Positions 6,239 to 31,841 of a stretch of DNA of 64,000 nucleotides are shown in pieces. This DNA comes from Acidobacteriota bacterium (GTDB lineage: Bacteria > Acidobacteriota > Vicinamibacteria > Vicinamibacterales > JAKQTR01). The translations under genes were made by a program, and so were the position numbers. Within the stretch, counting starts at the first letter, position 1; each line of letters opens with the position of its first letter. A model generated the notes under the pieces. The model worked only from the letters and a program-made list of their open reading frames with translations, was not told the origin of the DNA and did not search any database. The stretch lies in assembly GCA_029562975.1 (NCBI GenBank), contig JAKQTR010000043.1, positions 72,491-136,490 of the forward strand, in the 5' to 3' direction.

Positions 6239-6302
6239 GGCGCCGGCGTGCGCGCTTGCCTCGGAGGCCGCGGGTGCGGTCTTCGTGAGAGAATTGCTGG
6301 AA

Positions 6303-9300: not shown

Positions 9301-12300
9301 CCTGGCGGTTCTTCGAGACGTTCGTCACCCAGGACGATGCCTGGCTGCCGCCGGACAACTTCCAGGTGGACGGCGCCGGGCCGAAGCTGGCACGGCGCAC
9401 CTCGCCCACCAACATCGGGCTGGGGCTGCTCTCGACGCTTGCCGCCTACGACCTGGGCTACATCGCGGCCGGCGAGCTGGCCGAGCGCATCGATCGCACG
9501 CTGACCACGCTCGAGGGGCTCGAGCAGCACGAGGGGCATTTCCTCAACTGGTACGACACCGCCACCCTGGCGCCGCTCCATCCGCATTACGTCTCGACGG
9601 TGGACAGCGGCAACCTCGCCGCGTCGCTGATCGCGCTCGTGCAGGGCCTCCGACAGGCGGCCGACGAGCCGCAGACGCCGGCCCAGCGCCTGGAGGGCCT
9701 TGCCGATACGGCCGACCTGCTGTGCGAGGCGTCGGGGCTGCAGGGGAACGTGAACCAGGTGGCCCGCGCGATCGCCGGGGCCGCCCGCGCCGGGACGCCC
9801 GCCGCCGACACTGCCCGGCTGCGCGCGCTCGCCGCCGGCCTGGCAGCCGCGTCGGCCGCGGCCGTGCCGGCCGACCCGCGCGGGCCGGAGGGAGACCTGG
9901 CCTTCTGGGTGCGCGCCGTAATCGACGCGATCGAGCGCCTCGAGGAGCCTGCCTCGCACCCCGGCGAACGGCTGCACGCGCTGGCCGGGCGGGCCGCGCG
10001 TCTTGCCGACGACATGCGGTTCGACTTCCTGTACGACCGCCGGAGGCGCATCTTCGCGATCGGCTACCGCCTGGCCGACGCCGAGGGGCCTGGACGGCTC
10101 GACGCGTCGTTCTACGACCTGCTGGCCTCCGAGGCGCGGCTGGCCAGCTTCGTCGCCATCGCGAAGGGCGACGTGCCTCAGCATCACTGGTTCCACCTCG
10201 GGCGCATGGTGACCAACGTCAAGGGGCGCGCGGTGCTCGTGTCGTGGGGCGGCACCATGTTCGAATACCTGATGCCGCTGCTGCTGATGCGCGGCTTCCG
10301 GGGGACGCTGCTCGATCGTTCCTGCCGCGCCAGCGTGTGGAGGCAGATCGAGTACGGGCGGCAGCACGGCATCCCCTGGGGGATCTCTGAGTCGGCGTAC
10401 TCGCTCACCGACCGCGACGGGACCTATCAGTACAAGGCCTTCGGCGTCCCGGGCCTCGGCCTCAAGCGCGGCCTCTCCGACGAGCTGGTGGTGTCGCCGT
10501 ACTCCACCGCGCTCGCCAGCCTGCTGAACGCCCCGGCCGCCACCGCGAACCTCGAGCTGCTCCGGCGGGTCGGCCTCGACGGCCGCTTTGGCTTCTACGA
10601 GGCGGTGGACTACCGGCCGCGGACGAAGGTCGATCCCGAAGCGCCCGACGCCCCGGCCAAGGCGTCGCCGGTCATCGTCCGGGCGTACTTCGCCCACCAC
10701 CAGGGCATGTCGCTTGTGGCGCTCGCCAACACCGTCCGCGACGGCGTCTTCGTCGAGCGGTTCCACGCCGACCCGCGCATCCGGGCCACCGAGCTGCTGC
10801 TGCAGGAGCGGGTGCCGCGCGAGGCGATCCTCTCCGAGCCTCGGCCGGCGAAGGCCGCGGCCGCCGCGGCCCCCGTCCCGGTGCTCGCGTCGCGCCGATT
10901 CAAGTCGGCGCACACGGTGAGCCCGCACGCGCACGCCCTGTCGAACGGGCGCTACACGACGATGCTGACACACGCGGGCGGCGGCTGGAGCGCGTGGCAC
11001 GACCTGGCCGTGACCAGGCGCCGCGAGGACCGCACCTCCGACTTCGGCGCCCACTTCATCTACTTCCGCGACCCGTGGTCGGGGAAGGTCTGGTCGCCCA
11101 CCTACCTGCCCACCTGCGTGGAGCCCGAGAGCTACGAGGTGACGTTCGCGCACGACAAGGCGACCTACCGCCGGCGCGACGACGACCTCGAGAGCCAGAT
11201 GCAAGTAGCCGTCTCGCCCGAAGACGACGTCGAGGTGAGGCGCGTGACGATCACCAACCGCGGCGACCGGCCGCGCGAGGTGGAGATCACGAGCTACGCC
11301 GAGATCGTGCTCGGGCGCCCCGAGGACGACCTGGCCCACCCGGCGTTCGGGAAGCTGTTCATCGAGACCGAGTACGACGCGCAGAGCGCGGGCCTGCTCT
11401 TCAGCAGGCGCCCCCGCGCCTCGGACGACCCGGCCGCCTGGGCCTTCCACGTGCTCGGGGTGGACGGCCGCTTCGGCGGCGCCGTGGAATGGGAGACCGA
11501 CCGCGCCCGGTTCCTGGGCCGCGGCCGCAACCTTGCCCGGCCGGCCGCCATCGACGGCCCGCTGTCGGGAACCACCGGGGCCGTGCTCGACCCGGTCGCC
11601 TCGCTGCGCGAGCGCGTGCGCCTCGCCCCCGGGGCTTTCGTCCGGCTCACCTTCGCCACCGGCGCCGCGCCGGCCCGCGCCGCCGCGCTGACCCTCGTCC
11701 AGAAGTACCGCGATGCGAGCGCCGCCTCGCGCGTCTTCTCGATGGCGTTCACGCACGCGCACATCACGCTGCAGCACCTCGGCCTGACCGACAGCCAGGC
11801 GATGCTCTTCGACCGCCTCGGGTCGCGCGTCTTCGGCGCCGACGCCACCTGCATCAGCCCCACCGACCTCGCGGGCAACACGCTCGGCCAGCCCTCGCTG
11901 TGGGCCTACGGCATCTCGGGCGACCTCCCCATCGTGCTCCTGCGGGTCATCGACCCGGCGGGCGTTGCGCTGGCCCGCCAGCTGCTGCACGCGCAGGAGT
12001 ACTGGCGCGTCAAGAGCCTGCGCGCAGACCTGGTCATCCTCAACGAGCAGCCGGTGGACTACCTCGACGACCTGCAGGGATCGCTCGCCGCGCTGGTGCG
12101 CGAGCCGCGCTTCGCGGGGTGGCACGACAAGCCGGGAGGCGTCTTTCTCCTGCGGACCGACGGGATGCCGGAACCCGACCGCCGCCTGCTGGCCGCCGCG
12201 GCCCGCGTGGTCCTCCGCAGCGACCTCGGCGAACTGGAGCCGCAGCTGGATCGCCCGGCGCCCTGGCTCTACCCGGCGCAGCCGCCCGCGGGGCTTCTCG

Positions 12301-14783
12301 CGCCCGGCCGCGCCACCCCTGCGGCCGAGCCGGTGCCGGTGCCGCCGCTCGCGATGGAGAACGGCGTCGGCGGGTTCACGCCCGACGGGCGCGAGTATGT
12401 CATCGTGCTCGAAGACGGGCGCGACACCCCGCTCCCCTGGTCGAACGTGCTCGCCAACCCGGAGTTCGGGACCATTGCCAGCGAGTCGGGCGCGGCCTTC
12501 ACCTGGGCGGTCAACAGCCGCGAGAACCGACTGACCCCGTTCGCCAACGACCCGGTGTCAGACCCGACCTCCGAGGCGGTCTACATCAGGGACGACGACG
12601 CGCACGTCGCCTGGGGCGCGACGCCGTCGCCGCTGCCGCGCGTGGAGGGGAGCCGCTGGGTCGTGCGGCACCGCGCGGGGGCGACCCGATATCAGCACGC
12701 GGTCGAAGGCCTCGAGCAGGAGTTCGAGGTCTTCGTGCCGCCCGACGACCCGGTGAAAGTGTCGGTGCTGACGCTCAGGAACACCTCTGGAACCGCGCGC
12801 CGGCTGAGCGTGTTCGGATATGCCGAGTGGCGCCTTGGGCCGCCGCGCCAGGGCGAGCGCCGCTTCGTCATCACCGAGGCGGACGAACGAGCCGGCGCGA
12901 TCTTCGCGCGCAACCCGTACAACAGCGAGTTCGCCGGCCGCGTTGCCTTCCTGCGCGCCACCGCGGCGCCCGCCTCGTACACGTGCGATCGCGGCGACTT
13001 CATCGGCCGCCAGCGCACGCCGGCCAACCCGGCGGGGCTTGGCCGCGGCCGCCTCGCCAGCCGGAGCGGCGCCGGGCTCGATCCCTGCGCCGCGCTGCAC
13101 GTGCCGATCGTGATCCCGCCCGGCGAGACGCGGCGGCTGGCGTTCGTCCTCGGCCAGGGGCGCGACGCCGCCGAGGCCGCCGACCTGGCCGCGCGCTACG
13201 CGTCGATCGAGTCGGTCGAGGCGGCCGGGGAGCGCTGCAACCGCTTCTGGGACGAGACGCTCGGCGCGATCCAGGTGAAGACGCCGGACGACTCGTTCGA
13301 CCTGATCGTGAACAGGTGGCTGCTGTACCAGTCGCTGAGCTGCCGGATGTGGGCGAGGAGCGGGCCCTACCAGCCCGGCGGCGCGTGGGGATTCCGCGAC
13401 CAGCTGCAGGACGCGCTGGCGCTGGTCTACACGCGGCCCGATATCTGCCGCGCGCACCTGCTCGAGGCGGCCTCGCGCCAGTTCGTCGAGGGCGACGTGC
13501 AGCACTGGTGGCACCCGCCTACCGGCCGCGGGACGCGCACCCGGTGCTCGGACGACCTGCTCTGGCTGCCCTACGCGGTGGCGGCGTATGTCTCGCGGAC
13601 CGGCGACGAGGGAGTGCTCGACGAGGCCGTCAGGTTCCTCGAGGCGCCGCCGCTGGCGCCCGACCAGCAGGAGGCCTACTTCCAGCCGTCCGTGTCGGCG
13701 CAGTCGGCCTCGCTCTTCGAGCACTGCTGCCGCGCCGTCGATCGCTCGCTCGTCTACTACGGCGCGCACGGCCTCCCGCTCATGGGATCGGGCGACTGGA
13801 ACGACGGCATGAACCGCGTCGGCCACGAGGGTCGGGGCCAGAGCGTCTGGCTCGCCTGGTTCCTCATCGTCGTGTTGAACGAGATGGCGGGGCTGGCCGA
13901 TCGCCGCGAGCTCCCCGACGTGGCGCAGCGCTACCGGAGCCAGGCCGAGTGGCTGGCCGGCATGGCCGAACTCGCCTGGGACGGCGACTGGTACCGCCGC
14001 GCGTACTTCGACGACGGGACGCCGCTCGGGTCGGCGCAGAACGATGAGTGCCGGATCGACTCGCTGACCCAGTCGTGGGCCGTGCTCTCGGGCGCAGCCC
14101 AGCTGCGGCGCGCCGCGCGGGCGATGGAAGCGGTGCGCGCGCACCTCGTCCGACGCGACGCGCAGCTCGTGCTGCTGCTGACGCCCCCCTTCGACCGCAC
14201 GCCGCTCGACCCCGGCTACATCAAGGGGTACCTGCCGGGCCTGCGCGAGAACGGCGGGCAGTACACGCACGCGGCGCTGTGGGCCGTGATCGCGCTCGCC
14301 CGCCTCGGGCAGGGCGACGAGGCGATGGAGCTGTTCCACATGGTCAACCCGATCAACCACACCCGCACGCGCGACGAGGTCGACCGCTACAAGACCGAGC
14401 CCTACGTGGTGGCGGCCGACGTGTACGCGCACCCCCAGCACGCGGGGCGCGGCGGGTGGAGCTGGTACACAGGGTCGGCCGGGTGGATGTACCAGGCCGC
14501 CGTCGAGGCGTTACTCGGTCTGCGGCGGTACGGCCAGTCGTTCGCGCTCGATCCGTGCATCCCGGCGCGCTGGGAAGGCTTCTCCCTGGAGTGGCGCGTC
14601 GGCCGGACGACCTACCGGATTGAGGTCGCCAGCCCCGAGCAGCGCGGCCGCGGCGTGGGCCAGGTCCACCTCGACGGCGTCCCCGTCGATCCCCGGAAGA
14701 TCCCGTTGGTGGACGACGGCAGGCTCCACGAGGTGAGGGCCGTCCTCGGCGAGGTCGGGACCACCGATAGCGCAGCCGTGTAG
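6303..14783 (+). CDS. cgs: Cyclic beta-1,2-glucan synthase (GT84 glycosyltransferase + GH94 phosphorylase-like domains), 2826 aa
   Basis: N-terminal [13 protein letters not shown], six or more TM segments and a GT84 core ([31 protein letters not shown]). The GH94 region includes [19 protein letters not shown] and [10 protein letters not shown]. The frame is open from 5226, but upstream of 6303 it overlaps the cytochrome gene and gene remnants. An alternative GTG start lies at 6285. Confidence 0.9.
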
Positions 14784-14937: not shown

Positions 14938-15129
14938 GGGCGGCTGCACCGGTTCCGCCCTGACGCGCCGTCGTCGGCCGCCGCCCGTCCGCGGGGCCGT
15001 TCGAGCTGCACCGCCACGGCGATGAACGCGCGGGCCTGGTCGGATCGATCCGCCCAGCCTGCGCGCGACATGCGAGGGGATGCGCGACCCGCGGCGAACG
15101 CGCGGGCACGCTCAGGGTGTCGAGAGCAA

Positions 15130-15206
15130 TGGTGCGCCCTGCAGGACTCGAACCTGCGGCCTCCTGGTTCGTAGCCAGACGCTCTATCCAGCTGAGCTAA
15201 GGGCGC
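15130..15206 (-). tRNA. tRNA-Arg (anticodon ACG)
   Basis: The reverse complement GCGCCCTTAGCTCAGCTGGATAGAGCGTCTGGCTACGAACCAGGAGGCCGCAGGTTCGAGTCCTGCAGGGCGCACCA folds as a cloverleaf. It has a 7-bp acceptor stem, a GTTCGAGTC T-loop, a CTACGAA anticodon loop and an encoded CCA. Confidence 0.95.
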
Positions 15207-15333
15207 ACGGGCCGTTGCCCGGCGGCAACGAGTACATCCGCCGGAACAATCGAATATACCACGACGGCGCCAGGGGTGAAGACCCGGGGCTTCGCCGGGT
15301 TCCGCGGCGCCTCCCCGGTCATTTCTCGCCGGA

Positions 15334-15352
15334 CGCCCGGGATGCCCGGGCG
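15334..15352 (-). terminator. Hairpin downstream of the GH3 gene
   Basis: CGCCCGGG-ATG-CCCGGGCG forms an 8-bp stem 49 nt past the TAA at 15401-15403. Confidence 0.35.
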
Positions 15353-15400
15353 CCGCCGCCAGGCGGCTGTCTCGCGCCCCGTTCCGATTTCGTCAATCCC

Positions 15401-17290
15401 TTACTCCCCCGCTCCCGGCCGCGCCGCCCGCGCCAGCCCGTGGCCGATCGGGAACATCCCGGGCAGCGAGATCGGCAGCCTGCCCCGAACCGCGATCTCC
15501 CCGGCCAGCGCCTTCACGGCCGCCCGCTCGGTGAAGTCCGAGAACTCGTAGCCGAGGAGCACCGCCGGCAGCTTCGGCAGGAACGTGGCGGTGTAGGGAT
15601 TCCCGAAGCACACGGTGACGAACGGCTTGTCCTGGGCGGCAATCGAATCGAGCAGCGCGATCTGCGGCTGGCTCAGGTCCATCCGGCCGCTGAACGACGC
15701 GATGCGCACGAACACGCCCGCGACGACGACGCCCGCGCGGCGCGAGAGGGCCCGGATGAGCTCGTACTCAGACGCGGTCGTGCGATCCGTGATCTCGATG
15801 GACGTCAGGTTCGGCCACCGCCTCTTCAGCTCCGGCACGATCGTCCTGCCCGGCACGCCCTCGCGCCAGCCCGACGCGTAGTCGAGCACCGACAAGTAAA
15901 GCAGGTCCGCGTCGCGCGGCACGGACAGCGGCACCTGGTTCCGCTCGTCCCTGATGAGGGTGATGCCCCGGTCGTTGATCTCCTGCGCGACGGCCGCATG
16001 CGCGCGCGTGCCGAACCTCCCGGCAATCGCCTCGAGGTCCACCGTCCGCTTCACGTGCAGCCCCAGCCGGGCCTTGGCCCGCAGGATGCGCCCGACCGAC
16101 GCGTCGACCTGCGCCATCGGGATCTCCCCCGCCGCCACCGCCGCCACGATCCCCCTGAACGCCGCGTCATCGTCCGGCGAGTGCAGCACGAAGTCCGCCC
16201 CGGCCCGCACCGCCATCGCGGCGGCCTTGTCGTGCGGAAACATCTTCGAAATCGCGTCCATCGTCATCGAGTCGGTGAAGACGAGGCCCGAGAACTTCAG
16301 CTCGTCGCGCAGCAGGCCCGTGAGGATCGGGCGGCTCAGCGTGGCCGGGATGCCGGGCGACGGGTCGAGGGCCGGCAGGATGATGTGCGTGGACATCACC
16401 GCGTCGACGCCCGCCGCGATGGCGGCCCTGAAGGGCACCAGCTCGACCTCGTCCAGGTGCGCGCGGGGGTGGTTGATGACGGCGAGCCCGAGGTGCGTGT
16501 CGACGTTCGTGTCGCCGTGGCCCGGGAAGTGCTTCGCGGTGGCGAAGGCGCCGGTGGACTGGATGCCCCTGATGTAGGCCACCGCCATCTTCGACACGAA
16601 CGCGGGGTCCTCGCCGAACGAGCGCAGGTTGATGATCGGGTTGCGCGGGTTGTTGTTGACGTCGACGAGCGGATAGAAGTCGATGTTGACGCCGACGGCG
16701 CGCGCCTCGGTCGCGCCGACCACGCCCGCGTTGAAGGCCATCTGCTCGTCGCCGGTCGCCGCGATGACCATGGCGCGCGGCAGCCGCGTGGCGCCGTTCA
16801 GGATGTAGGCCGCGCCGCCCTCGAAATCGCCCGACGTGAGGAGCGGGACCGCCGACTCGGCCTGCAGGCGGTTCAGGACCGCCGCGGCCGCGTACGGATC
16901 GCCCTTGCGGGAGGCCGGCCCGGCGCCCCACACGGGATTGAGCATCACCTGCGGAAACGCCTCCGCGCTGCCGAACACGTGGATGCCGCCGACTCTCACG
17001 TCCCGCACGAGGTGCAGCAGGCGGTCGAACTCCGCGCTGTCGGTGCTCATGTAGCCCGCGTTGAACGAGGTGAAGATCAGCTGGCCGATCTTCTCGTCCA
17101 GCGTCATCTTCGCCATCGTGCGCGCGACCCACAGATCGGCTTCCTTCTGCCGCCTTTCGGCCGCCTGCTTCTCGATCCTCGCCTGCTTCGCCGAGAGGGG
17201 CTGGGCGGCGGGGACGCCCTGGCCGGCCGAACCGGCGACCACGGTGACGAGCGCGGCTGCGAGAACGGGCGCGAGCATCGGTCTCTTCAT
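15401..17290 (-). CDS. Secreted glycoside hydrolase family 3 (NagZ-like beta-N-acetylhexosaminidase / beta-glucosidase)
   Basis: Signal peptide, KIGQL, KHFPGHGDTNVDTH (GH3/NagZ D-[ST]-H motif), and GLVFTDSMTMDAI with the catalytic Asp region. Confidence 0.85.
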   Translation of the reverse strand: MKRPMLAPVLAAALVTVVAGSAGQGVPAAQPLSAKQARIEKQAAERRQKEADLWVARTMAKMTLDEKIGQLIFTSFNAGYMSTDSAEFDRLLHLVRDVRVGGIHVFGSAEAFPQVMLNPVWGAGPASRKGDPYAAAAVLNRLQAESAVPLLTSGDFEGGAAYILNGATRLPRAMVIAATGDEQMAFNAGVVGATEARAVGVNIDFYPLVDVNNNPRNPIINLRSFGEDPAFVSKMAVAYIRGIQSTGAFATAKHFPGHGDTNVDTHLGLAVINHPRAHLDEVELVPFRAAIAAGVDAVMSTHIILPALDPSPGIPATLSRPILTGLLRDELKFSGLVFTDSMTMDAISKMFPHDKAAAMAVRAGADFVLHSPDDDAAFRGIVAAVAAGEIPMAQVDASVGRILRAKARLGLHVKRTVDLEAIAGRFGTRAHAAVAQEINDRGITLIRDERNQVPLSVPRDADLLYLSVLDYASGWREGVPGRTIVPELKRRWPNLTSIEITDRTTASEYELIRALSRRAGVVVAGVFVRIASFSGRMDLSQPQIALLDSIAAQDKPFVTVCFGNPYTATFLPKLPAVLLGYEFSDFTERAAVKALAGEIAVRGRLPISLPGMFPIGHGLARAARPGAGE

Positions 17291-17353
17291 GGGTGCCTCA
17301 GGTGGGTACGGCGGAAGCGTACCACGGCCGGACTGCGGGGAATGACCTCGGCA

Positions 17354-17482
17354 CTCGAGATTCGGGCCTCGGGGCTCGGGATTCGGACCTCGGGATTCGG
17401 CGGGGACCCGGGGCTGGGCGTTGGGGACTGAGGATTGGGGACTCGGAGATTCTGGATTCTGACTTCTGGATGCTGGATTCTG
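17354..17482. repeat. Composite short tandem repeats in the GH3/moaB divergent spacer
   Basis: CTCG(A/G)GATTCGG occurs three times (17354, 17375, 17389). GGGGACT(C)G(A)GGATT occurs twice (17423, 17437). (T)CTGGATTCTG occurs about three times (17451-17482). Confidence 0.8.
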
Positions 17483-17555: not shown

Positions 17556-18059
17556 ATGAGCCACATCGAGCACAAGCAGGCCTCGCCCGCCGTCGCGCAC
17601 TGCTACATCCTGACGATCAGCGACACGCGCACCCTGGCCACCGACTCGAGCGGCCAGGCCATCTGCGATCTGCTCTGGGCCGAGGGCCACCAGGTGACGG
17701 GACGGAAGATCGTGCCCGACGAGCCCGACCAGGTGCGCGAGGCCGTTGCGGCGCAGCTCGCGAACCCTGACGTGCAGGTCGTGATCACGGCCGGCGGCAC
17801 CGGCATCACGTCGCGCGACACGACCTACGAGGCCATCTCGGCCCTCCTCGACAAGAAGCTCGACGGGTTCGGCGAGCTGTTCCGCATGCTGAGCTACCAG
17901 GAGATCGGCTCGGCCGCGATGCTCAGCCGCGCCATCGGCGGACTCGCGAAGGGCAAGATCGTCCTGTCGCTGCCAGGGTCGCAGGGCGCGGTGCAACTGG
18001 CGATGACGAAGCTCATCCTGCCCGAGCTGGGGCACCTGGTGCGGGAAGCGTCGCGGTAG
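17556..18059 (+). CDS. moaB: Molybdenum cofactor biosynthesis protein B (MoaB/Mog family)
   Basis: ILTISDTR, VITAGGTGITSRD and LPGSQGAV motifs typical of the MoaB/MogA fold. Confidence 0.85.
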   Translation: MSHIEHKQASPAVAHCYILTISDTRTLATDSSGQAICDLLWAEGHQVTGRKIVPDEPDQVREAVAAQLANPDVQVVITAGGTGITSRDTTYEAISALLDKKLDGFGELFRMLSYQEIGSAAMLSRAIGGLAKGKIVLSLPGSQGAVQLAMTKLILPELGHLVREASR

Positions 18060-18182
18060 GGACTGGGGGCTGGGCGCTGGGCGCTGCTCCGACGCGCCTC
18101 TCGCCGCGTTGGTGCTGTGCCAGCGAGACCGTCCGACAGACCAGCGCCTAGCACCCAGTCGCCAGCGCCTGAGGCACACACG

Positions 18183-19400
18183 ATGACCCACATGCGCCCG
18201 ATCAGGGAGACGATCACGCTCGAGGCGGCGCGCGAGATCATCGACCGCGTCATCAAGCCCATGGAGCGCACCGAACGTGTCCGTGCGGACCTGGCCAGCG
18301 GCCGCGTCGTCTCGCGCGCCGTTGAGGCGCAGGCCGACGTGCCTCCGTTCACGCGCGCGGCGATGGACGGATATGCCGTCCGCGCCGCCGATACGGTTGG
18401 CGCGTCAACGCACGAGCCGCGCACGCTCGCCAGGGTGGAAACGGTCTACACCGGGCAGGTGCCAACGAAGGTCGTCGGCCAGGGGCAGTGCACCGAGATC
18501 GCCACCGGCGCCCCGGTGCCGGACGGCGCGGACGCGGTCGTGATGGTCGAGGAGACCGACAAGGACGCGGGCGGGGCGGTTCGCGTGTTCAGCCCGGTCT
18601 ACCCCGGCCAGAACGTGACGAAGCAGGGCGCCGACATCCGCGCGGGCCAGCTGGTGCTGGCCCCGGGCGACGTCCTGAACCCCAGCCGCATCGGCGCCAT
18701 CGCGGCGCTCGGCGTCATCGACGTCGAGGTCTACGCCCGGCCCCGCGTCGCGATCCTCTCGACCGGCAACGAGGTGGCCGAGCCGGGCGCCCCGCTCGCG
18801 CCCGGGCACATCTACGACATCAACAGGTTCACCCTCAGCGCGGTGCTTCGCGACCACGGCGCCGTCCCGGTGCCCTATCCCACGGCCCCGGACACGATCC
18901 CGGAACTCGAACGCGCCATCGAGGCCTGCTCCGCCGAGGACCTCATCCTCTTCTCCGGCGGCAGCTCGGTCGGCGAGCGCGATCTCATCCTCGACGTCGT
19001 CGAGCGCATGGGCGAGGTGCTCTTCCACGGCATCGCGGTCAAGCCCGGCAAGCCGACGCTCTTCGGCACGGTCGCCGGCAAACCCGTCTTCGGCATGCCC
19101 GGCTACCCCACCTCCTGCCTGTCGAACGCCTACATGCTGCTAGTCGCACCCGTCCGGCGCATGGCGCGGCTGCCCGAGTGGACGCCTCGCGTGATCCGCC
19201 TGCCGCTCGGCCAGCGCATCGTCTCGACGACGGGGCGGCACCAGTTCTACACCGTGCGGGTCGTGGACGGGCAGGCGATGCCCGCGTTCAAGGCGTCCGG
19301 CGACATCACGAGCATGTCGCAGGCCGACGGCTACATCGAAATCCCGGCGCAGGTGGACGTCGTCGAGAAGGGCGAGGTCGTCGCCCTCACGCTCTTCTGA
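18183..19400 (+). CDS. moeA: Molybdopterin molybdenumtransferase MoeA
   Basis: PPFTRAAMDGYAV, SGGSSVGERD and GMPGYPTSC motifs. ATG at 18183 was chosen inside the longer ORF that starts at 18117. Confidence 0.85.
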   Translation: MTHMRPIRETITLEAAREIIDRVIKPMERTERVRADLASGRVVSRAVEAQADVPPFTRAAMDGYAVRAADTVGASTHEPRTLARVETVYTGQVPTKVVGQGQCTEIATGAPVPDGADAVVMVEETDKDAGGAVRVFSPVYPGQNVTKQGADIRAGQLVLAPGDVLNPSRIGAIAALGVIDVEVYARPRVAILSTGNEVAEPGAPLAPGHIYDINRFTLSAVLRDHGAVPVPYPTAPDTIPELERAIEACSAEDLILFSGGSSVGERDLILDVVERMGEVLFHGIAVKPGKPTLFGTVAGKPVFGMPGYPTSCLSNAYMLLVAPVRRMARLPEWTPRVIRLPLGQRIVSTTGRHQFYTVRVVDGQAMPAFKASGDITSMSQADGYIEIPAQVDVVEKGEVVALTLF

Positions 19401-19488
19401 GAAGGGGTCGGGTCTAATTATGCAGACGGCCGATCTCTGCTAACGATTCTGTCGCACGCACCGGGATTCGTCCGAATGGAGAGCCGAC

Positions 19489-19980
19489 ATGCCGCGTGAC
19501 CAGAGCACAACACTCGAGGCTGGCGACCGCGCGCCGCTCTTCACGCTCCCCAACCAGAAAGGCGTGCCCGTGTCGCTGGCCGAAGCGCTGGCGAAAGGCC
19601 CGGTCGTCCTCGGCTTCCACCGGGGTACCTGGTGACCGAACTGCCGTCGCCGGTTCGGCGACCTGGCGCGGAACGCAGGACACTACCGGGCGCTCGGCGC
19701 GACGGTGATGGCCGTCGTCGCGCAACGCTCCGAGAAGGTGAAACGCCACATCGAGGACACGGGGCTGCCCCTCGATCTGCTCATCGATGACACGCGCGAG
19801 GTGGTGAAGGCCTACGGCGTGTGGCACCAGATCGGCTTCGACGCCTGGAACATCTCGAGGCCGGCGCTGTTCATCATCGATCGCGGCGGGATCGTTCGTT
19901 ACGCGTTCGTGGCAGATTGGCAGGCGGAGTTCCCGGAGCACGAAGTCATCGTCGCGGAGTTGGCGAAAGCGGGGGGATAG
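19489..19980 (+). CDS. Peroxiredoxin-like (AhpC/TSA, PRX_like2-type) protein with in-frame UGA, predicted selenoprotein (163 aa)
   Basis: GGAGAG lies 6 nt before ATG 19489. The frame reads ...VVLGFHRGTW-[TGA 19633-19635]-PNCRRRF... and stays open and homologous-looking to TAG 19978-19980. The TGA replaces the first Cys of the WCPxC redox motif. The ORF track shows only the 3' fragment starting at 19705. Confidence 0.65.
19643..19667 (+). promoter_or_regulatory. Candidate bacterial SECIS hairpin
   Basis: GUCGCC-GGUUC-GGCGAC (19646-19662) is a 17-nt stem-loop starting 11 nt after the UGA, with GGU in its loop. GCC/GGC extends the stem across a 2-nt bulge. Confidence 0.5.
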
Positions 19981-19984
19981 AACT

Positions 19985-20164
19985 CAGAATCCGGAATTCA
20001 GAATCACGACTCGGAGACCAGAAACCAGGAGCCTGAACCTGGAGAGCGGCCGCCGTCGAGCGTAACCGTCTCAAAGCCGCAAGGGGCGACGACTCGCGTG
20101 GCACGTGTCGCCGCCCCTGCAGCTGTTCGTCTTCCAGATTCTGAATTCCGGCTTCTGGATTCTG
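19985..20164. repeat. MITE-like element with terminal inverted repeats in a convergent spacer
   Basis: The left arm CAGAATCCGGAATTCAGAATC (19985-20005) pairs with the right arm GATTCTGAATTCCGG(CTTCTG)GATTCTG (20137-20164). There is an internal hairpin GGGGCGAC...GTCGCCGCCCC. It lies between the selenoprotein gene and the sodA stop. Confidence 0.6.
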
Positions 20165-20180: not shown

Positions 20181-20783
<603 letters not shown>

Positions 20784-22459: not shown

Positions 22460-22489
22460 GTTCCCCGGTTGGTGTACACTCAAGCCAGT

Positions 22490-22670
22490 CAGCCCGGTCG
22501 GTTGATCAGGGAAGCTGGGTGCAAAGCCCACACGGTCCCGCCACTGTAAGCGGGGAGCGCGCGCGATTGCGGCGGCCGCACGACGGCTGCCCGTCACGGT
22601 GCCGGAAGGCGCTGGAAGACGAAACGCGCGCGTGACGATCCGCGAGTCAGGAGACCTGTCGATCCGGCCG
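22490..22670 (+). promoter_or_regulatory. Cobalamin (B12) riboswitch
   Basis: The conserved core GGGAAGCTGGGTGCAAAGCCCACACGGTCCCGCCACTGT is at 22508-22547. It also has GGTGCCGGAAGGCG and the B12-box AGTCAGGAGACCTGTC (22645-22660). It sits directly upstream of a TonB receptor and an ABC uptake operon. Confidence 0.85.
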
Positions 22671-22752
22671 CCACACTCACTCCTCCGCAGGGCCCCGCCC
22701 CACGGGTCCCGGGCGGAACCATCGGTGCGAGGTCACACCGAGAGGAGGTCGC

Positions 22753-25050
22753 GTGCGCCCGGTTTCTGCATTCTCTCTCATCTGCTCCGTCCTTCTCCTT
22801 CTTACGGCCGGCGTGTCGCCGGCCAGCGCGCTGTCCCCGGCTGCGCCCGCGGACGGCGAGCCGTCCCTCCACGGACGCGTCCTCGACCCGTCGGGTCAGC
22901 CCGTCGCCGCCGCGCGGGTCAGCCTGCGTTCGGCGTCGGGCACGCTGCGCCACACCCTCAGCCTGGCAGACGGGTCGTTCGCCTTCGACGGGCTCGGCCC
23001 GGGCGCGTACGACCTGACGGCGGCTGTTGACGGCTTCTCGGCCGGCATCGTCCCCGCGGTCGTCGAGCCTGGCGCGGCGCTCCGCATCGACATCCCGCTT
23101 CGCCTCGCCGCCCTGACGGACACGATCCTGGTCACGGCATCCGTCATCGAGGTGCCGCGCGCGGAAGCGCCGGCGGGCGTGGTGGCCCTGACGCGCCGCG
23201 ATCTCGAGGACCGGCAACTGGACACCGTCGCCGACGCCCTTCGCCTCGTGCCCGGACTGGCGGTCGTGCCGACGGGCGGGCTCGGCAGCGTGACGTCTGT
23301 CTTCCCGCGCGGCGGCGAGTCCGACTTCACGCTCGTGCTGGCGGACGGCGCCAAGCTGAACGCCTTCGGCGGAGGAATCGACTTCGGCCACCTGACGACG
23401 TTCGGCATCGACCAGATCGAAGTCGTCCGGGGTCCGCAGAGCGCGGTGTTCGGCGCCGACGCGGTGGGCGGCGTGATTCACCTGCGGTCGAAGGTGGGCG
23501 GCCCTCCAGCCTGGAACACTCTCCTCGAGGCCGGATCGCGCGGGACGACGCGCGCCGCTATCGGATCGACGGGCTCCGTGGGCGCGCTCGACTGGGGCGT
23601 GAGCGCCGAGCGGGTCGAGAGCGACGGCTGGACGGGCGCGGCCCCGAACGTCGCGCTGGGCAGGGTGACGAACGACGACTACCAGGCAAGAATGCTCTCG
23701 GCAGCCGCGGCGTGGCGGGCCGGCTCCGGCTCGGTCGTCCGCGCCTCGGGGCGCTTCGGCAGGAACGAGCGAGGCTACCCGGGGCCATTTGGCGCGGATC
23801 CGATCGGCGCCTACGGCGGCATCGACGCCGTCTCGCGAGGCACGAACACGTTCAAGGCGGGCTCGCTGGAGTTCACCCGCGAGTGGGGCCCGGCAACGGC
23901 CGTGCGGCTTCACGCCAGCGCCGGCGACGAGGAGTCGATCTTCGCCAGCCCGTACGGCGAGTCCGCGTCGCGGACGCGCCGGTACGCCGCCCGCGGCCAG
24001 TTCGATCGCGCCCTCTCCGCGGCGCTCAGCGCATCGGCAGGCGCGGCCGTCGAGTTCGAGCGCGCCGACAGCACGTTCATCACCGGCGTGGACGCGCAGC
24101 AGGTTCCGGTGAAGCGGCGGGTGGAGGGCTACTTCGCCGAACTGCGCTGGCGCTCGGCCTCCCGCCTGTTCGTGACAGCCGGCCTGCGCGTCGAGCACAT
24201 CGTGCGCAGCGCGCTCGAAGCGGACCCGTGGGCGTGGGAGCCGCGCCCGGCCATGAAGACGGACGGCCTCGTCTCGGCCAACCCCCGCGCCGCATTCAGC
24301 TACTACCTGCGGACCTCGAACGAGAGCGCGGGCAACTGGACGCGCCTCCACGCCAGCGCCGGCACGGGCATCAGGCCGCCGGCCGCCCTGGAGATCGCCT
24401 TCACCGACAACCCGGGCCTCAGGCCCGAGCGCAGCCGGAGCGCCGAGGCCGGCGTCGAGCAGGCGCTGGCCGGTGGCCTGATCGTGGCGGACGCCACGGT
24501 GTTCGGCAACCGCTACGACGACCTCATCGTGGCCGTCGGCCGCGCGCTCCAGGACTACAGCCAGTTCCGCAGCGACAACATCTCGAACGCCCGGGCGGGC
24601 GGCGTCGAGGCGTCACTGGCCCTGCGCACGAAGCTCGGCCTCGAGTTCCGCGCGGCCTATTCCTTCGTGGACACGGCCATCCTGGCGGTGGACCGCTCGA
24701 CCGGCACGGCGCCGGCGCCCTTCGCGGTCGGCGACTGGCTCGTCCGCCGGCCTCGCCACCAGGCGAGCGCGGACATCGTGTGGCGCCACGCCCTCGCCAC
24801 GCTGTACGTGCGCGCGGGCGGGCGCTCGCGCGTCCTCGACGTCGAGCCGAACTGGGGCGCGTCGGGGGGCCTCTTCCACTCGCCGGGCTTCGCGGTGGCC
24901 AACGCCGGCGCCGCGATCCGCCTGACGCGCCACGCGGACCTCGTCGTCCGCGCCGACAACCTGTTCGACAAGCGCTACGAGTCGGCACTCGGCTACCCCG
25001 CTCCTCGCCGCGCCCTCTCAGCCGGAGTGCGCCTTGCTGCGCGCCGTTGA
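22753..25050 (+). CDS. TonB-dependent receptor with N-terminal carboxypeptidase-regulatory-like domain (BtuB-like by context)
   Basis: GTG start after GAGGAGG. It has a signal peptide, a CarboxypepD_reg-like segment (GRVLDPSGQPVAAARVSL) and a plug domain (IEVVRGPQSAVFGADAVGGVI). The C-terminus is a beta-barrel. Confidence 0.85.
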   Translation: MRPVSAFSLICSVLLLLTAGVSPASALSPAAPADGEPSLHGRVLDPSGQPVAAARVSLRSASGTLRHTLSLADGSFAFDGLGPGAYDLTAAVDGFSAGIVPAVVEPGAALRIDIPLRLAALTDTILVTASVIEVPRAEAPAGVVALTRRDLEDRQLDTVADALRLVPGLAVVPTGGLGSVTSVFPRGGESDFTLVLADGAKLNAFGGGIDFGHLTTFGIDQIEVVRGPQSAVFGADAVGGVIHLRSKVGGPPAWNTLLEAGSRGTTRAAIGSTGSVGALDWGVSAERVESDGWTGAAPNVALGRVTNDDYQARMLSAAAAWRAGSGSVVRASGRFGRNERGYPGPFGADPIGAYGGIDAVSRGTNTFKAGSLEFTREWGPATAVRLHASAGDEESIFASPYGESASRTRRYAARGQFDRALSAALSASAGAAVEFERADSTFITGVDAQQVPVKRRVEGYFAELRWRSASRLFVTAGLRVEHIVRSALEADPWAWEPRPAMKTDGLVSANPRAAFSYYLRTSNESAGNWTRLHASAGTGIRPPAALEIAFTDNPGLRPERSRSAEAGVEQALAGGLIVADATVFGNRYDDLIVAVGRALQDYSQFRSDNISNARAGGVEASLALRTKLGLEFRAAYSFVDTAILAVDRSTGTAPAPFAVGDWLVRRPRHQASADIVWRHALATLYVRAGGRSRVLDVEPNWGASGGLFHSPGFAVANAGAAIRLTRHADLVVRADNLFDKRYESALGYPAPRRALSAGVRLAARR

Positions 25051-25903
25051 CGCCACCTACGTCCACGGCCGAAACCTGGCCGCCGGGGCCGGCGGCCGCC
25101 GTGCGTCGCCGCCGCCGGCGGCTGGGGCGGCCGGCCCTGCGCCGCCTGCGCCCGCCCTGCCTGGCGTCCAGGGCGTCACAATGGCCATCGACCGCGGCCG
25201 CATCGTCGGCATCCTCGGCCCCAACGGGTCCGGCAAGACGACGCTGCTGCGGCTGCTGGCGGGGATGCTCAAGCCGGACGCGGGAACGGTCACGCTGGAA
25301 GGCAGGAGCCTGGCGTCCATCCCGCGCGCCGCGCTGGCGCGTTCGATCGCGGTCGTGCCGCAGGAGACGCATCTCGCCTTCGACTACTCGGTGCTCGAGA
25401 TCGCCCTCATGGGGCGCTACCCGCACCTCGGCACCTTTCAGCTCGAAGGGCCGCGTGATCTGGCCGTCGCGCGGGAGGCGCTGGTTGCGACGGGCACGGC
25501 CTCGCTCGAGCGCCGCCGCTTCTCCACCCTCTCCGGCGGCGAAAAGCAGCGCGTCGTCATCGCGAGCGCCCTGGCGCAGGAGGCCGAGATCCTGCTGCTC
25601 GACGAGCCGACCGCGTCGCTGGACGTCGGCTCGCAGTTCGACGTCTCGGCGCTGCTCGCGCGGCTCAACCGCGATCGCGGCCTGACCATCGTCGTTGCCA
25701 CGCACGACCTGAACTTCGCCGCCGCGCTCTGCGGGTCGCTCGTTATGCTGTCGGCCGGGCGCCTCATCGCGTCGGGCCCCACCGGCGAGACGCTCACGAG
25801 CCTGTCCATCCAGGCGTTGTACGGCGTCGTGGCCGACGTGTACCCGCACCGCGCCGCGGGCCACCTGACGGTCGTGCCGCTCCGGAGGATCCGCCGTGAC
25901 TGA
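25034..25903 (+). CDS. ABC transporter ATP-binding protein (FecE/BtuD-like)
   Basis: Walker A GPNGSGKTT, signature LSGGEKQRV and Walker B ILLLDEP. It has a low-complexity Ala/Pro/Gly insert near the N-terminus. The TTG start overlaps the receptor stop. Confidence 0.85.
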   Translation: MLRAVDATYVHGRNLAAGAGGRRASPPPAAGAAGPAPPAPALPGVQGVTMAIDRGRIVGILGPNGSGKTTLLRLLAGMLKPDAGTVTLEGRSLASIPRAALARSIAVVPQETHLAFDYSVLEIALMGRYPHLGTFQLEGPRDLAVAREALVATGTASLERRRFSTLSGGEKQRVVIASALAQEAEILLLDEPTASLDVGSQFDVSALLARLNRDRGLTIVVATHDLNFAAALCGSLVMLSAGRLIASGPTGETLTSLSIQALYGVVADVYPHRAAGHLTVVPLRRIRRD

Positions 25904-26900
25904 CGTGCGCCGCCGGCTCGCCGCGGCGGTTGCCGCCTTCGGCGCGCTGGCGGCGGCCGCCGTCCTCGCGGCGCCGCTGGCCGGCTCCACGCCCATCCGG
26001 CTGGATCGCGTGTTCGACCGCTCGGTCCCGTTCGCCGACAACGTGGACGCGCAGATCTTCTTCATCGCCCGCCTGCCCCGGGCGCTCGCCGGCGCGCTGG
26101 TCGGCGCGTCGCTGGCAGCGGCGGGCGTGGTCTTCCAGGCGCTGCTGCGCAACCCGCTCGCCACCCCGTTCACGCTGGGCGTCTCGGCGGGATCCGCCCT
26201 GGGCGCCATGCTGGCGATCACGCTGCGCCTGCACCTGTCGCTCTGGGGCGTGTCGGCCGTCACCGCCGCGAGCTTCGCCGGCGCCGTGTGCGCGGTGGCC
26301 ATCGTCTACGGCATGGCCCGGGCGCGGCACAGCGGGTTCTCGACCAACGTGCTGCTGCTCGCCGGCGTCACGCTGAACGCGTTCTTCTCGGCGCTGATCC
26401 TGTTCGTGCAGTACGTCGCCGATTCCGCCGAGGCGCTGCGGACCGTGCGGTGGCTGATGGGCAACCTCGACGTCGCCGGCTACCGGCCCATCCTGGCGGC
26501 CCTGCCGCTTTGCGCGCTTTCCTTCGCCGCCTTCGCGTGGCTCCCGCGGGCGCTGAACCTCCTCAGCCTCGACGCCGACGCCGCCGCCTCGCGCGGCATC
26601 GACGTGCTGCGCGCGCAGCGCGTGGCGTTCTTCAGCGCGTCGATGGCCACCGGCGCCGCCGTCTCCCTCGGCGGCCCCATCGGGTTCATCGGCATCATCG
26701 TCCCCCACCTGGTTCGCCTGATCGTCGGCGCGGACCACCGCGTGACCCTTCCGGCATCCGCTCTGTTCGGAGCGGCGTTCCTCGTCGGCGCCGACGTCGC
26801 GGCCCGCACCGTGATGGCGCCCGTCGAGCTGCCTGTCGGCATCATCACCGCCCTCGTCGGCGGGCCGTTCTTCCTTTGGCTGCTCGTGAGGGCGCGCTAG
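25896..26900 (+). CDS. FecCD-family ABC permease (BtuC-like)
   Basis: About 9 TM segments with typical FecCD motifs (LAGALVGASLAAAGVVFQALLRNPLA, IGFIGIIVPHLVR). It overlaps the ATPase stop. Confidence 0.85.
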   Translation: MTDVRRRLAAAVAAFGALAAAAVLAAPLAGSTPIRLDRVFDRSVPFADNVDAQIFFIARLPRALAGALVGASLAAAGVVFQALLRNPLATPFTLGVSAGSALGAMLAITLRLHLSLWGVSAVTAASFAGAVCAVAIVYGMARARHSGFSTNVLLLAGVTLNAFFSALILFVQYVADSAEALRTVRWLMGNLDVAGYRPILAALPLCALSFAAFAWLPRALNLLSLDADAAASRGIDVLRAQRVAFFSASMATGAAVSLGGPIGFIGIIVPHLVRLIVGADHRVTLPASALFGAAFLVGADVAARTVMAPVELPVGIITALVGGPFFLWLLVRAR

Positions 26901-28600: not shown

Positions 28601-28810
28601 CTACTCCCCCAGGCGCGACTTCCGCTCCTCCAGCCAGGCCAGCAGGATGGCCTCGAGCCTGGACTCGTTCGACGCCTGGGGATCATCGTCGAACCCCTCG
28701 AGGCCGAGCACGCGCCCGCGCAGGTCGGCGAAGCGCACGGCCAGCGGATCGTCGTCCGGATACTGCTCGTCCAGCGCGATGCCGATCTCCTCCGCGTCGG
28801 TCCACTTCAT
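28601..28810 (-). CDS. iscX: Fe-S assembly protein IscX (YfhJ)
   Basis: [22 protein letters not shown]...[20 protein letters not shown] closely follows the IscX pattern. Confidence 0.9.
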
Positions 28811-29250
28811 GGCAGCCTCTCGCGCTTCGCCCCGTCAGAACCCGGCTCGGCGGCCGGCGCCGCCTCGGAGGCTCCGGCGCGCCTTCCGAGGCGGATCCCG
28901 CCCCCTTCCTGGACGTAGTTGCGCGTGTACATCGGGATCTCGCACACGACGTCGCCGTGCACGACGGCCTGGCAGCCGAGGCGCGACTGCGGGGTCAGGT
29001 CCCACGCCGTGTCGAGGCGGTCGGCCTCGTCATCCTGCATGTCGCTGAGGTTCCCGGCTCCCTCGCGCACGATGACGTGGCAGGTCGTGCACGCGCAGCT
29101 GCCGCCGCAGGCGTGCTCGAGCGGCACGTCGAGGTTCTTGGCGATGTCCAGCAGCGACCCCTGCAGGCCGTGGTGGGAGTACGGAAGCGACGGGAGATCC
29201 ACGTCGAAGGTGCGCTCCTGCCCCTCGACGATGAACGTGACTGTCGGCAT
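28807..29250 (-). CDS. fdx: ISC-type [2Fe-2S] ferredoxin
   Basis: The cysteine pattern [12 protein letters not shown]...C is of the adrenodoxin/Fdx type. It has a C-terminal tail of about 35 aa. Its start abuts the hscA stop. Confidence 0.9.
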
Positions 29251-31119
29251 CTAGCGCCCCTCGGCGGCGACGTCTGCGGCGGCCCGGCCGGCCAGCGCCG
29301 CCTGGACGGTCCGGTTCATCATCACTTCGGCCAGGTGCCGCGTCACCTGGTTGAGGGCGGCCGCCTTCACCTGGATGGCGTAGCGGTCGCCGCCGCCCAT
29401 CGACTGTTTGAGATCGGCGAGCGCCGCGTGGATGAGCACCAGTTCCTTCGGGTCGAGGTCGGCGGCGGCGATCGCCCCGAACTCCGGCCGCCTGAGCGCC
29501 TTCTCCGTCGCGGCGATGATCGTCTCGGCCTCGTTCCTGGCGTCGATGAGCATCCGCGCCTCGACGTCCTCCTGGGCGTGCTCGAACGACTCGATGAGCA
29601 TCCGCTCGACTTCCTCGTCGGTGAGCCCGTAGGAGGGCTTGACCTCGATGGTCTGCGCGATCCCCGTGCGCAGCTCGCGGGCGGAGACGCTCAGGATGCC
29701 GTTCGCGTCGATCTGGAACCGCACCTGGATGCGCGGCAGGCCCGCGGGCATGGGCGGAATGCCGCGCAGCTTGAACCGGCCCAGCGACCGGTTGTCGGAG
29801 GCCATTTCGCGCTCGCCCTGCAGGATGTGGATGTCCACGGCCGTCTGGTTGTCCACGAACGTCGTGAACATCTCGCCGCCGCTCGCCGGGATGGTGGAGT
29901 TGCGCAGGATGATCTTCGACACCACTCCGCCCATCGTCTCGATGCCGAGCGAGAGCGGCGTCACGTCGAGCAGCAGCATCTCGCGGCGGCCGCTGACGAG
30001 GATGTCCGCCTGGACCGCCGCGCCGATCGCGACGACTTCGTCCGGGTTGAGATCCGTGTGCGGCGCTCGGCCGAACAGCCGCTCCACTTCGCGGCGCACC
30101 AGAGGCACGCGGGTCGAGCCGCCGACCAGGACCGCCTCGTCCACCTGGCCCGGATCCAGCCCCGCGTCGGCCAGCGCCTTGCGGCACGGCTCGAGCGTCC
30201 TGGCCACGACCGGCCCGATGATTGCCTCGAATTCGTCGCGCGTCAGGCGCCGGCTGTACGGCCCGGCCCGCCCGGGCAGGCTGTCGATCTCGATGCGGGT
30301 CTCCTCGAACTCGGACAGGTCCAGCTTCGCCTGGATGACGGCCTTCCGGATCGCCTGCACGGCTTCCGGGGCCGCAGCCGGATCAATCCCGGTGTCGCGC
30401 GCCACCATCTCGACGAGCAGGCGGTCGAAGTCGTCGCCGCCGAGGTGCGTGTTGCCGTTCGTCGCCAGCACCTGGAACACGCCGTCCTCGATCCTGAGGA
30501 TCGAGATGTCGAAGGTCCCGCCGCCCAGGTCGTAGACGGCCACGACGCCCTGCCGCCGCCTGTCCAGGCCGTAGGCCAGGCACGCGGCGGTCGGCTCATT
30601 GACGATGCGAAGGACCTCGAGGCCCGCCAGCCGCCCGGCGTCGCGCGTGGCGGTGCGCTGGGCGTCGTTGAAGTACGCCGGCACCGTGATGACGGCGGCG
30701 GAGACCTCCGGGTCGATGTCGCCCTCCCTGGCGAAGAAGGCCTCGGCGCGGCGCTTCAGCTCGCGGAGGATGAAGCTCGAGATCTCGGGCGGCGTGAACG
30801 TCCGCTCGCCCAGGCGGACGCGGATGACGCTCCCGGGATCGCCGCCCAGCTTGAAGGGCAGCCACTGCTCCTCGCCCCTGGCGTCCTCGATGCCCCGGCC
30901 CATGAACCGCTTGACCGAGTACACGGAGCGCGCCGCGTCGGAGAGCAGCCGCCGCTGCGCCTCGCGGCCGACGTGGATCGCGCCGGACTCCCCGATGGAC
31001 ACGACCGACGGGAGCAGCCGGTCGCCGGACTCGTCGGGGATGACCGTGGTGGCGCCGTCGCGGCGGACGGCAACGAGGCTGTTCGTGGTGCCGAGATCGA
31101 TGCCGACGACCCTGCTCAT
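29251..31119 (-). CDS. hscA: Fe-S cluster assembly chaperone HscA (Hsp70 family)
   Basis: [17 protein letters not shown] and VGGSTR motifs. The start at ATG 31119 overlaps the hscB stop by 4 nt. Confidence 0.9.
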
Positions 31120-31826: not shown

Positions 31827-31841
31827 AGTCAGGATCGAAGA

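Follow-up and report, generated by a model that had tools for sequence, protein, structure and literature searches.

Does the in-frame TGA in a peroxiredoxin-like (Prx-like) gene of a soil Acidobacteriota lineage end translation, or is it read as selenocysteine (Sec)? The gene lies in a stretch of 64,000 nucleotides (nt) of an Acidobacteriota bacterium of the order Vicinamibacterales (assembly GCA_029562975.1, contig JAKQTR010000043.1, positions 72,491 to 136,490 of the forward strand). We refer to this whole stretch as the window and number all positions from its first letter. An earlier note, made from the letters alone, had proposed that the gene at 19489-19980 encodes a selenoprotein and that its UGA is followed by a hairpin resembling a selenocysteine insertion sequence (SECIS). 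Our analysis supports this proposal: the UGA occupies a column shared by Sec and Cys, the reading frame is open and under selection on both sides of it, and the hairpin is tied to the presence of the UGA. Judged from sequence comparison, the gene is a genuine case of a predicted selenoprotein and belongs to a known class, the Prx-like thiol:disulfide oxidoreductases (UxxC). We consider it highly likely that the predicted hairpin recruits SelB with Sec-tRNA(Sec) and that UGA-49 is thereby decoded as Sec.

The features on which this reading is built are the following.

19478-19483, forward strand: ribosome-binding site GGAGAG, with 7 nt from GGAG to the ATG (direct reading of the sequence).
19489-19980, forward strand: complete coding sequence of the predicted Prx-like selenoprotein, 163 residues in a single frame with Sec at residue 49.
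19633-19635, forward strand: in-frame TGA, predicted Sec codon of U49, aligned with the first Cys of GTWCPNC.
19633-19644, forward strand: U-P-N-C redox motif, a thioredoxin-like UxxC, from alignments to the PDB sequences of 2cx3 and ResA.

The reading frame is as the earlier note had described it. From the ATG at 19489-19491, which is preceded by a good ribosome-binding site, 48 codons lead to ...LGFHRGTW; they are followed by the TGA, by 114 further codons in the same frame (PNCRRRFGDL...) and by a TAG at 19978-19980. With the TGA read as Cys, Pfam assigns residues 12-138 to AhpC-TSA (PF00578; 2.4e-29, 102 bits against a cut-off of 26), the type of sequence that the earlier note had named, and also matches Redoxin (5e-21). 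AhpC-TSA_2, in turn, scored under its threshold on the 163-residue protein. The N-terminus agrees with that of full-length Cys homologues. As had been anticipated, ORF callers break the gene into pieces of 48 and 90-91 amino acids (aa).

For comparison we used 73 orthologues, namely the window and 72 loci of metagenome-assembled genomes (MAGs) from a scan of one genome per species. All but two of the 72 loci are labelled Acidobacteriota, Vicinamibacterales or Vicinamibacteria, and the two exceptions look like binning oddities. Two search patterns were used, and because one of them required a Cys and could thus find Cys forms only, the count of TGA against Cys codons is not biased towards Sec. 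Codon 49 is TGA in 59 orthologues and TGC or TGT in the remaining 14, and the surrounding FHRGTW_PNC is invariant except for two variants, PSC and PQC. A protein search gave the same picture. Among the 120 best clusters, about 13 are full-length homologues that carry Cys in the TGA column, where it is the first Cys of an invariant GTWCPNC; the position that the earlier note had assigned to the TGA, the first Cys of a W-C-P-x-C motif, is therefore the one seen in the alignment. Around 105 of these 120 clusters are fragments of 89-123 aa that span only the post-TGA part, as is expected when ORF callers split a gene that is interrupted by a TGA. The window's own 90-aa fragment is split identically in four independent assemblies of its sequence, and the TGA is therefore not a sequencing error.

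Both sides of the TGA are kept as coding sequence. In all 73 orthologues, 34 stop-free codons lie upstream of codon 49, and 109-158 codons are open downstream of it. Averaged over pairs, the ratio of the raw proportions of nonsynonymous and synonymous differences (pN/pS) reaches 0.47 before the TGA and 0.42 after it, the synonymous differences themselves being near 0.5; between the window and its closest relatives, pN is 0.05-0.14 and pS 0.34-0.56. Purifying selection acts on both flanks. A neighbour-joining tree combined with Fitch parsimony places Sec at the root and gives at least four changes from Sec to Cys. Some copies of the gene from long-read MAGs are frameshifted towards the N-terminus: locus L014 (near 10001-10145) has an upstream pN of 0.42, and protein P0069 is out of frame between residues ~30 and 65. 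These frameshifts are probably assembly indels rather than biology. Another protein match, P0018, has an odd start ('VTNC...').

TGA is not reassigned in the window DNA. It is the commonest stop there, ending 21 of the 37 gene-like ORFs, that of moeA included. A scan of the window and of the 10-kb flanks in the 72 genomes revealed no other gene with an in-frame TGA and coding signal on both sides of it; it yielded only ordinary stops, such as that of moeA followed by the Prx-like gene in the same frame. ORF size alone is no guide in this DNA, which is 71.5% G+C: spurious ORFs of up to 783 aa lie antisense to real genes or overlap them, for example at 15080-17431 on the forward strand, opposite a GH3 glycosidase gene at 15401-17290. 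The G+C content at the three codon positions separated real from spurious ORFs well.

What kind of active site would contain the Sec? The best match by sequence in the PDB is the BCP/PrxQ protein of Aeropyrum pernix (2cx3; 2e-18), and ResA is matched at 4e-11. In the ungapped alignment of FHRGTW-U-PNC with FFPAAF-S-PVC of 2cx3, C52 falls on the peroxidatic Cys, and U49 occupies the Ser/Thr column of the T/SxxC motif; the centre is therefore a thioredoxin-like UxxC and not a PrxU-like TxxU. Moreover, the Bacillus subtilis ResA string GTWC(E/P)(P/H)CKKEF matches GTW-U-PNCRRRF column by column. U49 corresponds to the first Cys of the ResA CxxC motif, Cys74, which we take to be the nucleophile, and C52 to the second, Cys77. 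An AlphaFold model of a 71%-identical Cys orthologue (P0001; pLDDT 80, pTM 0.80) consists in this region of a strand (39-44), a loop and a helix (50-68). Residue 49 lies at the N-terminal end of this helix and residue 52 within the first turn, in the model the classic CxxC position. In a Foldseek search with the same model, proteins of the PrxQ/BCP/1-Cys Prx and of the ResA/DsbE type were matched about equally (TM-scores of 0.65-0.82, and of 0.65-0.84 in the comparison with ResA).

Two other assignments do not fit this protein. The canonical Prx motif PxxxT/SxxC(U) is absent, as the predicted Sec stands at the Thr/Ser position and His or Arg at the Pro position. Regarding the ResA/TlpA/DsbE proteins, the N-terminus (MPRDQSTTLEAGDRAPLF) is hydrophilic and contains no hydrophobic segment, and the family scores are sub-threshold. 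This is true of all NCBIfam matches: BCP reached 58.5 of the 140 bits needed, ResA 47 of 170, a SelL-related model 45.9 of 120, PrxU 20.5 of 270 and DsbE 26 of 359. The earlier note's remark that Prx-like selenoproteins are a known class agrees with the literature, in which they form an established predicted family with distant homology to Prx and a thioredoxin-like UxxC instead of TxxU (PMC1088965). The family is listed as 'Prx-like thiol:disulfide oxidoreductase' with PF00578, UxxC/UxxU and the grade 'predicted with high confidence' (PMC13188914), and counts of its members are given in two further papers (PMC1794560, PMC5029168).

We then turned to the RNA that follows the TGA. Nucleotides of the hairpin are counted from the U of the UGA.

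19636-19671 (nt 4-39), forward strand: full SECIS-like hairpin, found in both the minimum free energy (MFE) and the centroid fold, -19.1 kcal/mol, z = -1.9.
19646-19662 (nt 14-30), forward strand: register A, upper stem-loop GUCGCCG-GUU-CGGCGAC, 10 nt after the UGA.
19649-19667 (nt 17-35), forward strand: register B, alternative hairpin GCCGGUUC-GGC-GACCUGGC, with 7 of 8 pairs in the window.

The full hairpin consists of a 3-bp base, an internal loop, a 4-bp stem, a 2-nt bulge, a 7-bp upper stem and a GUU loop. It contains the stem-loop that the earlier note had drawn as GUCGCC-GGUUC-GGCGAC, 10 nt past the TGA, together with its GCC/GGC extension across the 2-nt bulge (C31 U32), which is present in the MFE fold of nt 1-42. 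When compared to shuffled sequences, the stability has a z of -0.43 in a 76-nt context, of -1.9 over 42 nt (12 of 200 shuffles fold as well) and of -2.7 over 26 nt (4 of 200). Compared to synonymous-codon resamplings, the window-type hairpin stands out at p = 0.03. On its own, the structure is only mildly unusual at 71.5% G+C; the weight of the case for the hairpin rests on the comparison with the 72 other genomes.

The distance from the UGA to the apical loop is 17 nt in register A and 21 nt in register B. For bacterial SECIS elements a distance of 16-37 nt has been reported (PMC10778597), together with a small apical loop that contains a G (PMC1088965). Both the window form (7-bp stem, GUU loop, 17 nt) and the form of the majority of relatives (8-bp stem, GGU loop, 21 nt) have this geometry. 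A third pairing, of CCGAACUG with CAGUUCGG (nt 4-27), is seen in some folds; going by the known footprint of the ribosome on mRNA, it would lie within the ribosome while the A site is occupied by the UGA.

Is the hairpin kept with the UGA? In the window's clade, register A forms 7 of 7 pairs in all eight members. This needs a rare CGT codon (3.6% of the Arg codons in the window genes), which pairs with a GAC that specifies Asp where most relatives have Glu. In the other Sec-carrying relatives register B dominates, in the form GCC(A/G)GUUC-GGU-GAACUGGC, and it is perfect in 38 of the 55 distinct Sec sequences. Across 53 Sec sequences, 94.6% of the cells in the alignment of register B pair, compared to 17-45% when the partners are slid against each other. 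Perfect pairing in one register or the other is found in 45 of 55 distinct Sec sequences, but in only 1 of 13 distinct Cys sequences. Likewise, the mean fold energy of nt 10-42 is -12.7 kcal/mol for the Sec and -7.6 kcal/mol for the Cys sequences (Mann-Whitney p = 3e-7, uncorrected for phylogeny). The earlier note's hairpin is therefore retained together with the UGA; its 17-nt form, however, is specific to the window's clade, and in most relatives the hairpin lies 3-4 nt further downstream.

The choice of codons points in the same direction. In the Sec forms, the hairpin codons are near-invariant (CGC for Arg+5 in 52 of 52, CGG for Arg+6 in 44 of 44 and TTC for Phe+7 in 56 of 57), and Arg-4 and Arg+4 vary freely between four to six codons. 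Gly+8 is encoded by the rare GGT in 44 of the 59 Sec forms, which places GGU in the loop of register B. GGT makes up 3.4% of the Gly codons in the window genes and is used in 1-6 of ~57 cases at the other Gly sites of the gene. In most Cys forms, residue +8 is Ala, Ser, Thr or Val. Among them, the recent forms L023 and L035 retain 8 of 8 and 7 of 8 register-B pairs, and the older Cys clade retains 4-5 of 8.

SelA is encoded in the lineage. A scan of metagenomes with a GC-biased DNA motif of SelA gave 120 SelA loci, among which L194 and L195 were singled out by their tetranucleotide distance to the Vicinamibacterales loci. With the SelA of L194 as query, we found P0177 (80% identity) on contig DASUWB010000235.1, named 'L-seryl-tRNA(Sec) selenium transferase [Vicinamibacterales bacterium]' by NCBI. 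The SelA of L195 led to P0330 on the ENA contig_11325 (1,582,398 bp), which is the contig of one of our orthologues, L055 (CAWCNI010000002.1, a Vicinamibacteria MAG). Thus, SelA occurs in both the order and the class. Five other SelA matches on large contigs do not lie on contigs of the 72 loci. L055 is a Cys form (motif CPSC; codon at 10133-10135), which in the tree is nested beside the Sec-form genomes L048, L052 and L069. It keeps selA, near 1.49 Mb of the same contig, despite its Cys, so that loss of the Sec trait does not explain why Cys replaced Sec in its lineage.

In Vicinamibacterales and Vicinamibacteria (L197-L206), selA is solitary and found in the conserved order purH, cold-shock protein, two small ORFs, selA; an example is L204 10001-11401, which corresponds to ~1.489-1.491 Mb of contig_11325. 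Neither selB nor selD nor tRNA-Sec is found within 10 kb of these lone selA genes. Most other loci in the set of 120, in contrast, contain selAB operons.

A number of results weigh against Sec decoding. First, neither the 64-kb window nor the 10 kb around the Prx-like gene in the 72 genomes yielded a selA, selB, selD or tRNA-Sec gene. ARAGORN detected no tRNA-Sec in the window or in 60+9 loci, the window tRNAs being a tRNA-Arg and a tRNA-Glu only. tblastn with E. coli SelA, SelB and SelD (queries identical over their full length to PDB 8uzw, 5lzb and 3u0o, respectively) gave no match in the window or in 76 loci, and Pfam recognised no selenium-related genes among 37 window ORFs. Second, searches of the window and of 10 kb around the gene and around selA revealed no selB, selC or selD for the lineage, and the sole link of selA and the Prx-like gene on one contig is the Cys-form L055, not a Sec form. 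Third, no bacterial SECIS model of Rfam matches, either over the window at gathering thresholds or over 19560-19760 at permissive ones, where the only hits, mir-935 and P13, are at chance level. Fourth, the covariation is weak: each register has a single double-sided change, and the observed score was reached by 151 and 39 of 500 shuffles, respectively. Because the tests are non-significant for both registers, we claim no support from covariation; the support for the hairpin is its conservation and the contrast between Sec and Cys forms. Fifth, the hairpin of the majority type is not more stable than synonymous resamplings of its sequence (p ~0.33), which indicates that what is kept is a particular structure and loop, not stability. 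Sheer stability as the selected property was rejected on these grounds, as it is significant in the window type only (p = 0.03) and not in the majority type. Finally, the GUUCGG segment could take part in three mutually exclusive pairings, so that the predicted folds offer more than one candidate for the structure that SelB would bind.

There are three rival explanations of the locus, to which even taken together we assign only a small share of the likelihood. The one that survives best, itself improbable, is that the UGA is read through without Sec, either by a near-cognate or suppressor tRNA for Trp, Cys or Gly, or by SelB with Cys-tRNA(Sec), the hairpin merely slowing the ribosome or hindering release factor 2. 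In its favour are the weak covariation of the hairpin and the fact that complete Sec machinery was not found in a TGA-carrying genome, within the 10-kb flanks searched. However, TGA and TGC/TGT are the only codons in the redox Cys column that holds the UGA, which is the signature of a Sec/Cys pair, and the retention of a GGU or GUU loop by means of rare codons points to a binder that recognises the sequence and not to a mere roadblock. Moreover, SelA is encoded in the lineage, and no other interrupted genes are seen in the window and the flanks of the 72 genomes.

Still less probable is true termination at the TGA, which would leave a 48-residue peptide and a separate 90-residue C-terminal fragment translated from a start near 19705, or a functional truncated product. 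A single thioredoxin-fold domain would in this case be cut through its active site, and no translation would cover the 23 codons from the TGA to 19705, although these are conserved as coding sequence. It is true that TGA is a normal stop in this genome, and that ORF callers and public databases treat the locus in this way; the starts of the database fragments differ from entry to entry, however (89-123 aa), and the Cys-form orthologues are single polypeptides. Finally, a pseudogene or a sequencing or assembly error, of which a lone in-frame stop is the commonest sign and to which the frameshifted long-read MAG copies (L014, P0069) might seem to point, is effectively refuted, since the same TGA recurs between intact flanks with pN/pS below 0.5 in 59 species-level genomes with differences at roughly half of the synonymous sites, a divergence that excludes contaminating copies of one sequence, and since four independent assemblies are split alike; the decaying pseudogene that the earlier note had named as one of its refuting cases is thus excluded.

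If UGA-49 is decoded as Sec, the product would be a 163-residue cytoplasmic redox protein of the thioredoxin fold, related overall to BCP/PrxQ and with the active site U49-P-N-C52. The hairpin in the coding sequence just 3' of the UGA would display its small, G/U-containing apical loop outside the mRNA entrance of the ribosome. SelB with Sec-tRNA(Sec) would bind this loop and, competing with release factor 2, deliver Sec into the A site; for the window's clade, the best candidate site of SelB binding is the upper stem-loop at 19646-19662. U49, located at the N-terminus of helix 1 where thioredoxin and ResA have their nucleophilic Cys, would then attack an oxidised substrate with its selenolate. 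This substrate may be a disulfide or a sulfenic acid, or possibly a peroxide. C52 would resolve the intermediate as a selenenylsulfide, and a thioredoxin-type reductant would recycle the protein.

The two registers suggest, tentatively, that the SECIS slid by 3-4 nt within the ORF during evolution, although we regard this as a possibility that is more doubtful than probable. The hairpin is centred on nt 22 in the window's clade and on nt 26 in most Vicinamibacterales; the former was made possible by the rare CGT and the change from Glu to Asp, and the GGU loop of the latter is kept by the rare GGT. Another possibility is that the mutually exclusive pairings serve as a switch that decides whether Sec is inserted or translation ends. 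If both registers are functional, the family would provide a natural series of the migration of a SelB-binding hairpin under an almost fixed protein sequence, and would likewise illustrate the decay of the element once Sec has been replaced by Cys, which happened at least four times.

Predicted Sec in this gene matters for annotation: more than 100 database clusters, including the NCBI entry of the window gene, hold only a C-terminal fragment of 90-110 aa that is devoid of the active site. Vicinamibacterales are abundant soil Acidobacteriota. The Sec form is found in ~80% of the sampled species, beside a gene for superoxide dismutase (SOD), which would imply that selenium takes part in the redox defence of mostly aerobic soil bacteria, and the lineage is added to the map of the Sec-decoding trait. 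With its repeated Sec-to-Cys replacements, its graded loss of the SECIS hairpin and its two registers, the family amounts to a natural experiment. The finding leaves the understanding of how selenoproteins work unchanged. The class is known; its membership in Vicinamibacterales, its prevalence of ~80% and its systematic mis-annotation appear to be unreported, and a full-text literature search returned no relevant paper that joins Vicinamibacteria and selenoproteins.

The immediate neighbours of the gene in the window are these.

17556-18059: mogA/moaB-like gene, which precedes moeA in the local gene order.
18117-19400, forward strand: moeA (molybdopterin molybdenumtransferase; Pfam MoeA_N, MoCF_biosynth and MoeA_C), directly upstream of the Prx-like gene.
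20181-20783, reverse strand: Fe/Mn SOD gene (Pfam Sod_Fe_N and Sod_Fe_C), convergent with the Prx-like gene.

A gap of 88 nt separates moeA, which ends in an ordinary TGA stop, from the selenoprotein gene, and the two may share an operon. Where enough upstream sequence was available (71 loci), moeA precedes the Prx-like gene in 68, after a mogA/moaB-like gene. A functional reason for the pairing of the Prx-like gene with molybdenum cofactor genes is not apparent. On the downstream side, where 69 loci could be assessed, 47 have the convergent SOD gene, and this conserved neighbour fits an antioxidant role for the Prx-like protein.

The selenoprotein gene and sod converge on a comparatively AT-rich inverted repeat of 27 nt (AGAACUCAGAAUCCGGAAUUCAGAAUC), which lies between their stops. 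Its arms, at 19979-20005 and 20137-20163, are 89% complementary and enclose 131 nt, including a GC-rich hairpin at 20082-20118; no match arose in any of 100 shuffles, and a weaker third copy is found at 17455-17474. Similar repeats of the GAATC/CAGAA type seem to be read into C-terminal extensions of the homologues P0033, P0041 and P0098 (QKTEDRRQKTE). The element at 19979-20163 could be an intergenic element of the REP/MITE type or a bidirectional terminator.

Elsewhere in the window, a cobalamin riboswitch (Rfam RF00174, 70 bits) at 22482-22677 is located upstream of genes for a TonB-dependent receptor, an ABC ATPase and a FecCD permease (22753-26900). The region 22482-26900 is an ordinary btu-like cluster for the uptake of B12. 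An ORF of 3185 residues at 5226-14783 on the forward strand contains a Glycoamylase domain, two GH94 supersandwich stretches and a GH94 catalytic domain, and looks like a cyclic beta-1,2-glucan synthase of the Cgs/NdvB type. An ISC cluster on the reverse strand (28807-34466) encodes Rrf2/IscR, the class-V aminotransferase IscS, NifU/IscU and a 2Fe-2S ferredoxin, and 18 kb from it lies a frataxin/CyaY gene (52714-53037, forward strand). IscS-type enzymes can act on selenocysteine too; nothing ties the window IscS to selenium. Finally, the ORF at 48357-49490 on the reverse strand has a DndB (DNA-sulfur modification-associated) domain (4.7e-13), and no other dnd genes were recognised among the window ORFs scanned.

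How does the predicted selenoprotein compare with known systems? The hairpin resembles the SECIS of E. coli fdhF, which is likewise a hairpin of ~36 nt right after the UGA, with the upper stem-loop ~10 nt downstream, a bulge on the 3' side, and a G and a U in a small apical loop. Unlike in fdhF, the bulge in the window has 2 nt (CU), the register varies between clades, and the two sequences are not similar. The loop of the fdhF element is GGUC, in place of which the window has GUU or GGUUC.

At the protein level, B. subtilis ResA (PDB 1st9 and 1su9), a representative of ResA/TlpA, has the active-site string that aligns column by column with that of the window protein. ResA, however, is membrane-anchored and extracytoplasmic and uses Cys, whereas the window protein is closer to BCP overall. 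With PrxU of Eubacterium acidaminophilum and other TxxU Prx it shares the Pfam family, the fold and the location of Sec in the loop before helix 1. In PrxU, in contrast, Sec replaces the peroxidatic Cys of PxxxTxxC; the Sec of the window protein would stand three residues earlier, and a Cys keeps the peroxidatic position.

The closest likeness is to the Prx-like selenoprotein family itself (reference WP_010940744.1 of Geobacter sulfurreducens), to which we compared the window gene by described features, not by sequence. Both have the PF00578 domain, a UxxC centre, Sec/Cys pairs and a SECIS-like hairpin right after the UGA. The family has been described from Deltaproteobacteria, Clostridia and marine samples, whereas the window gene comes from Vicinamibacterales of aerobic soil, and the W-U-P-N-C motif and the conserved moeA-prx / sod neighbourhood are features of its own.

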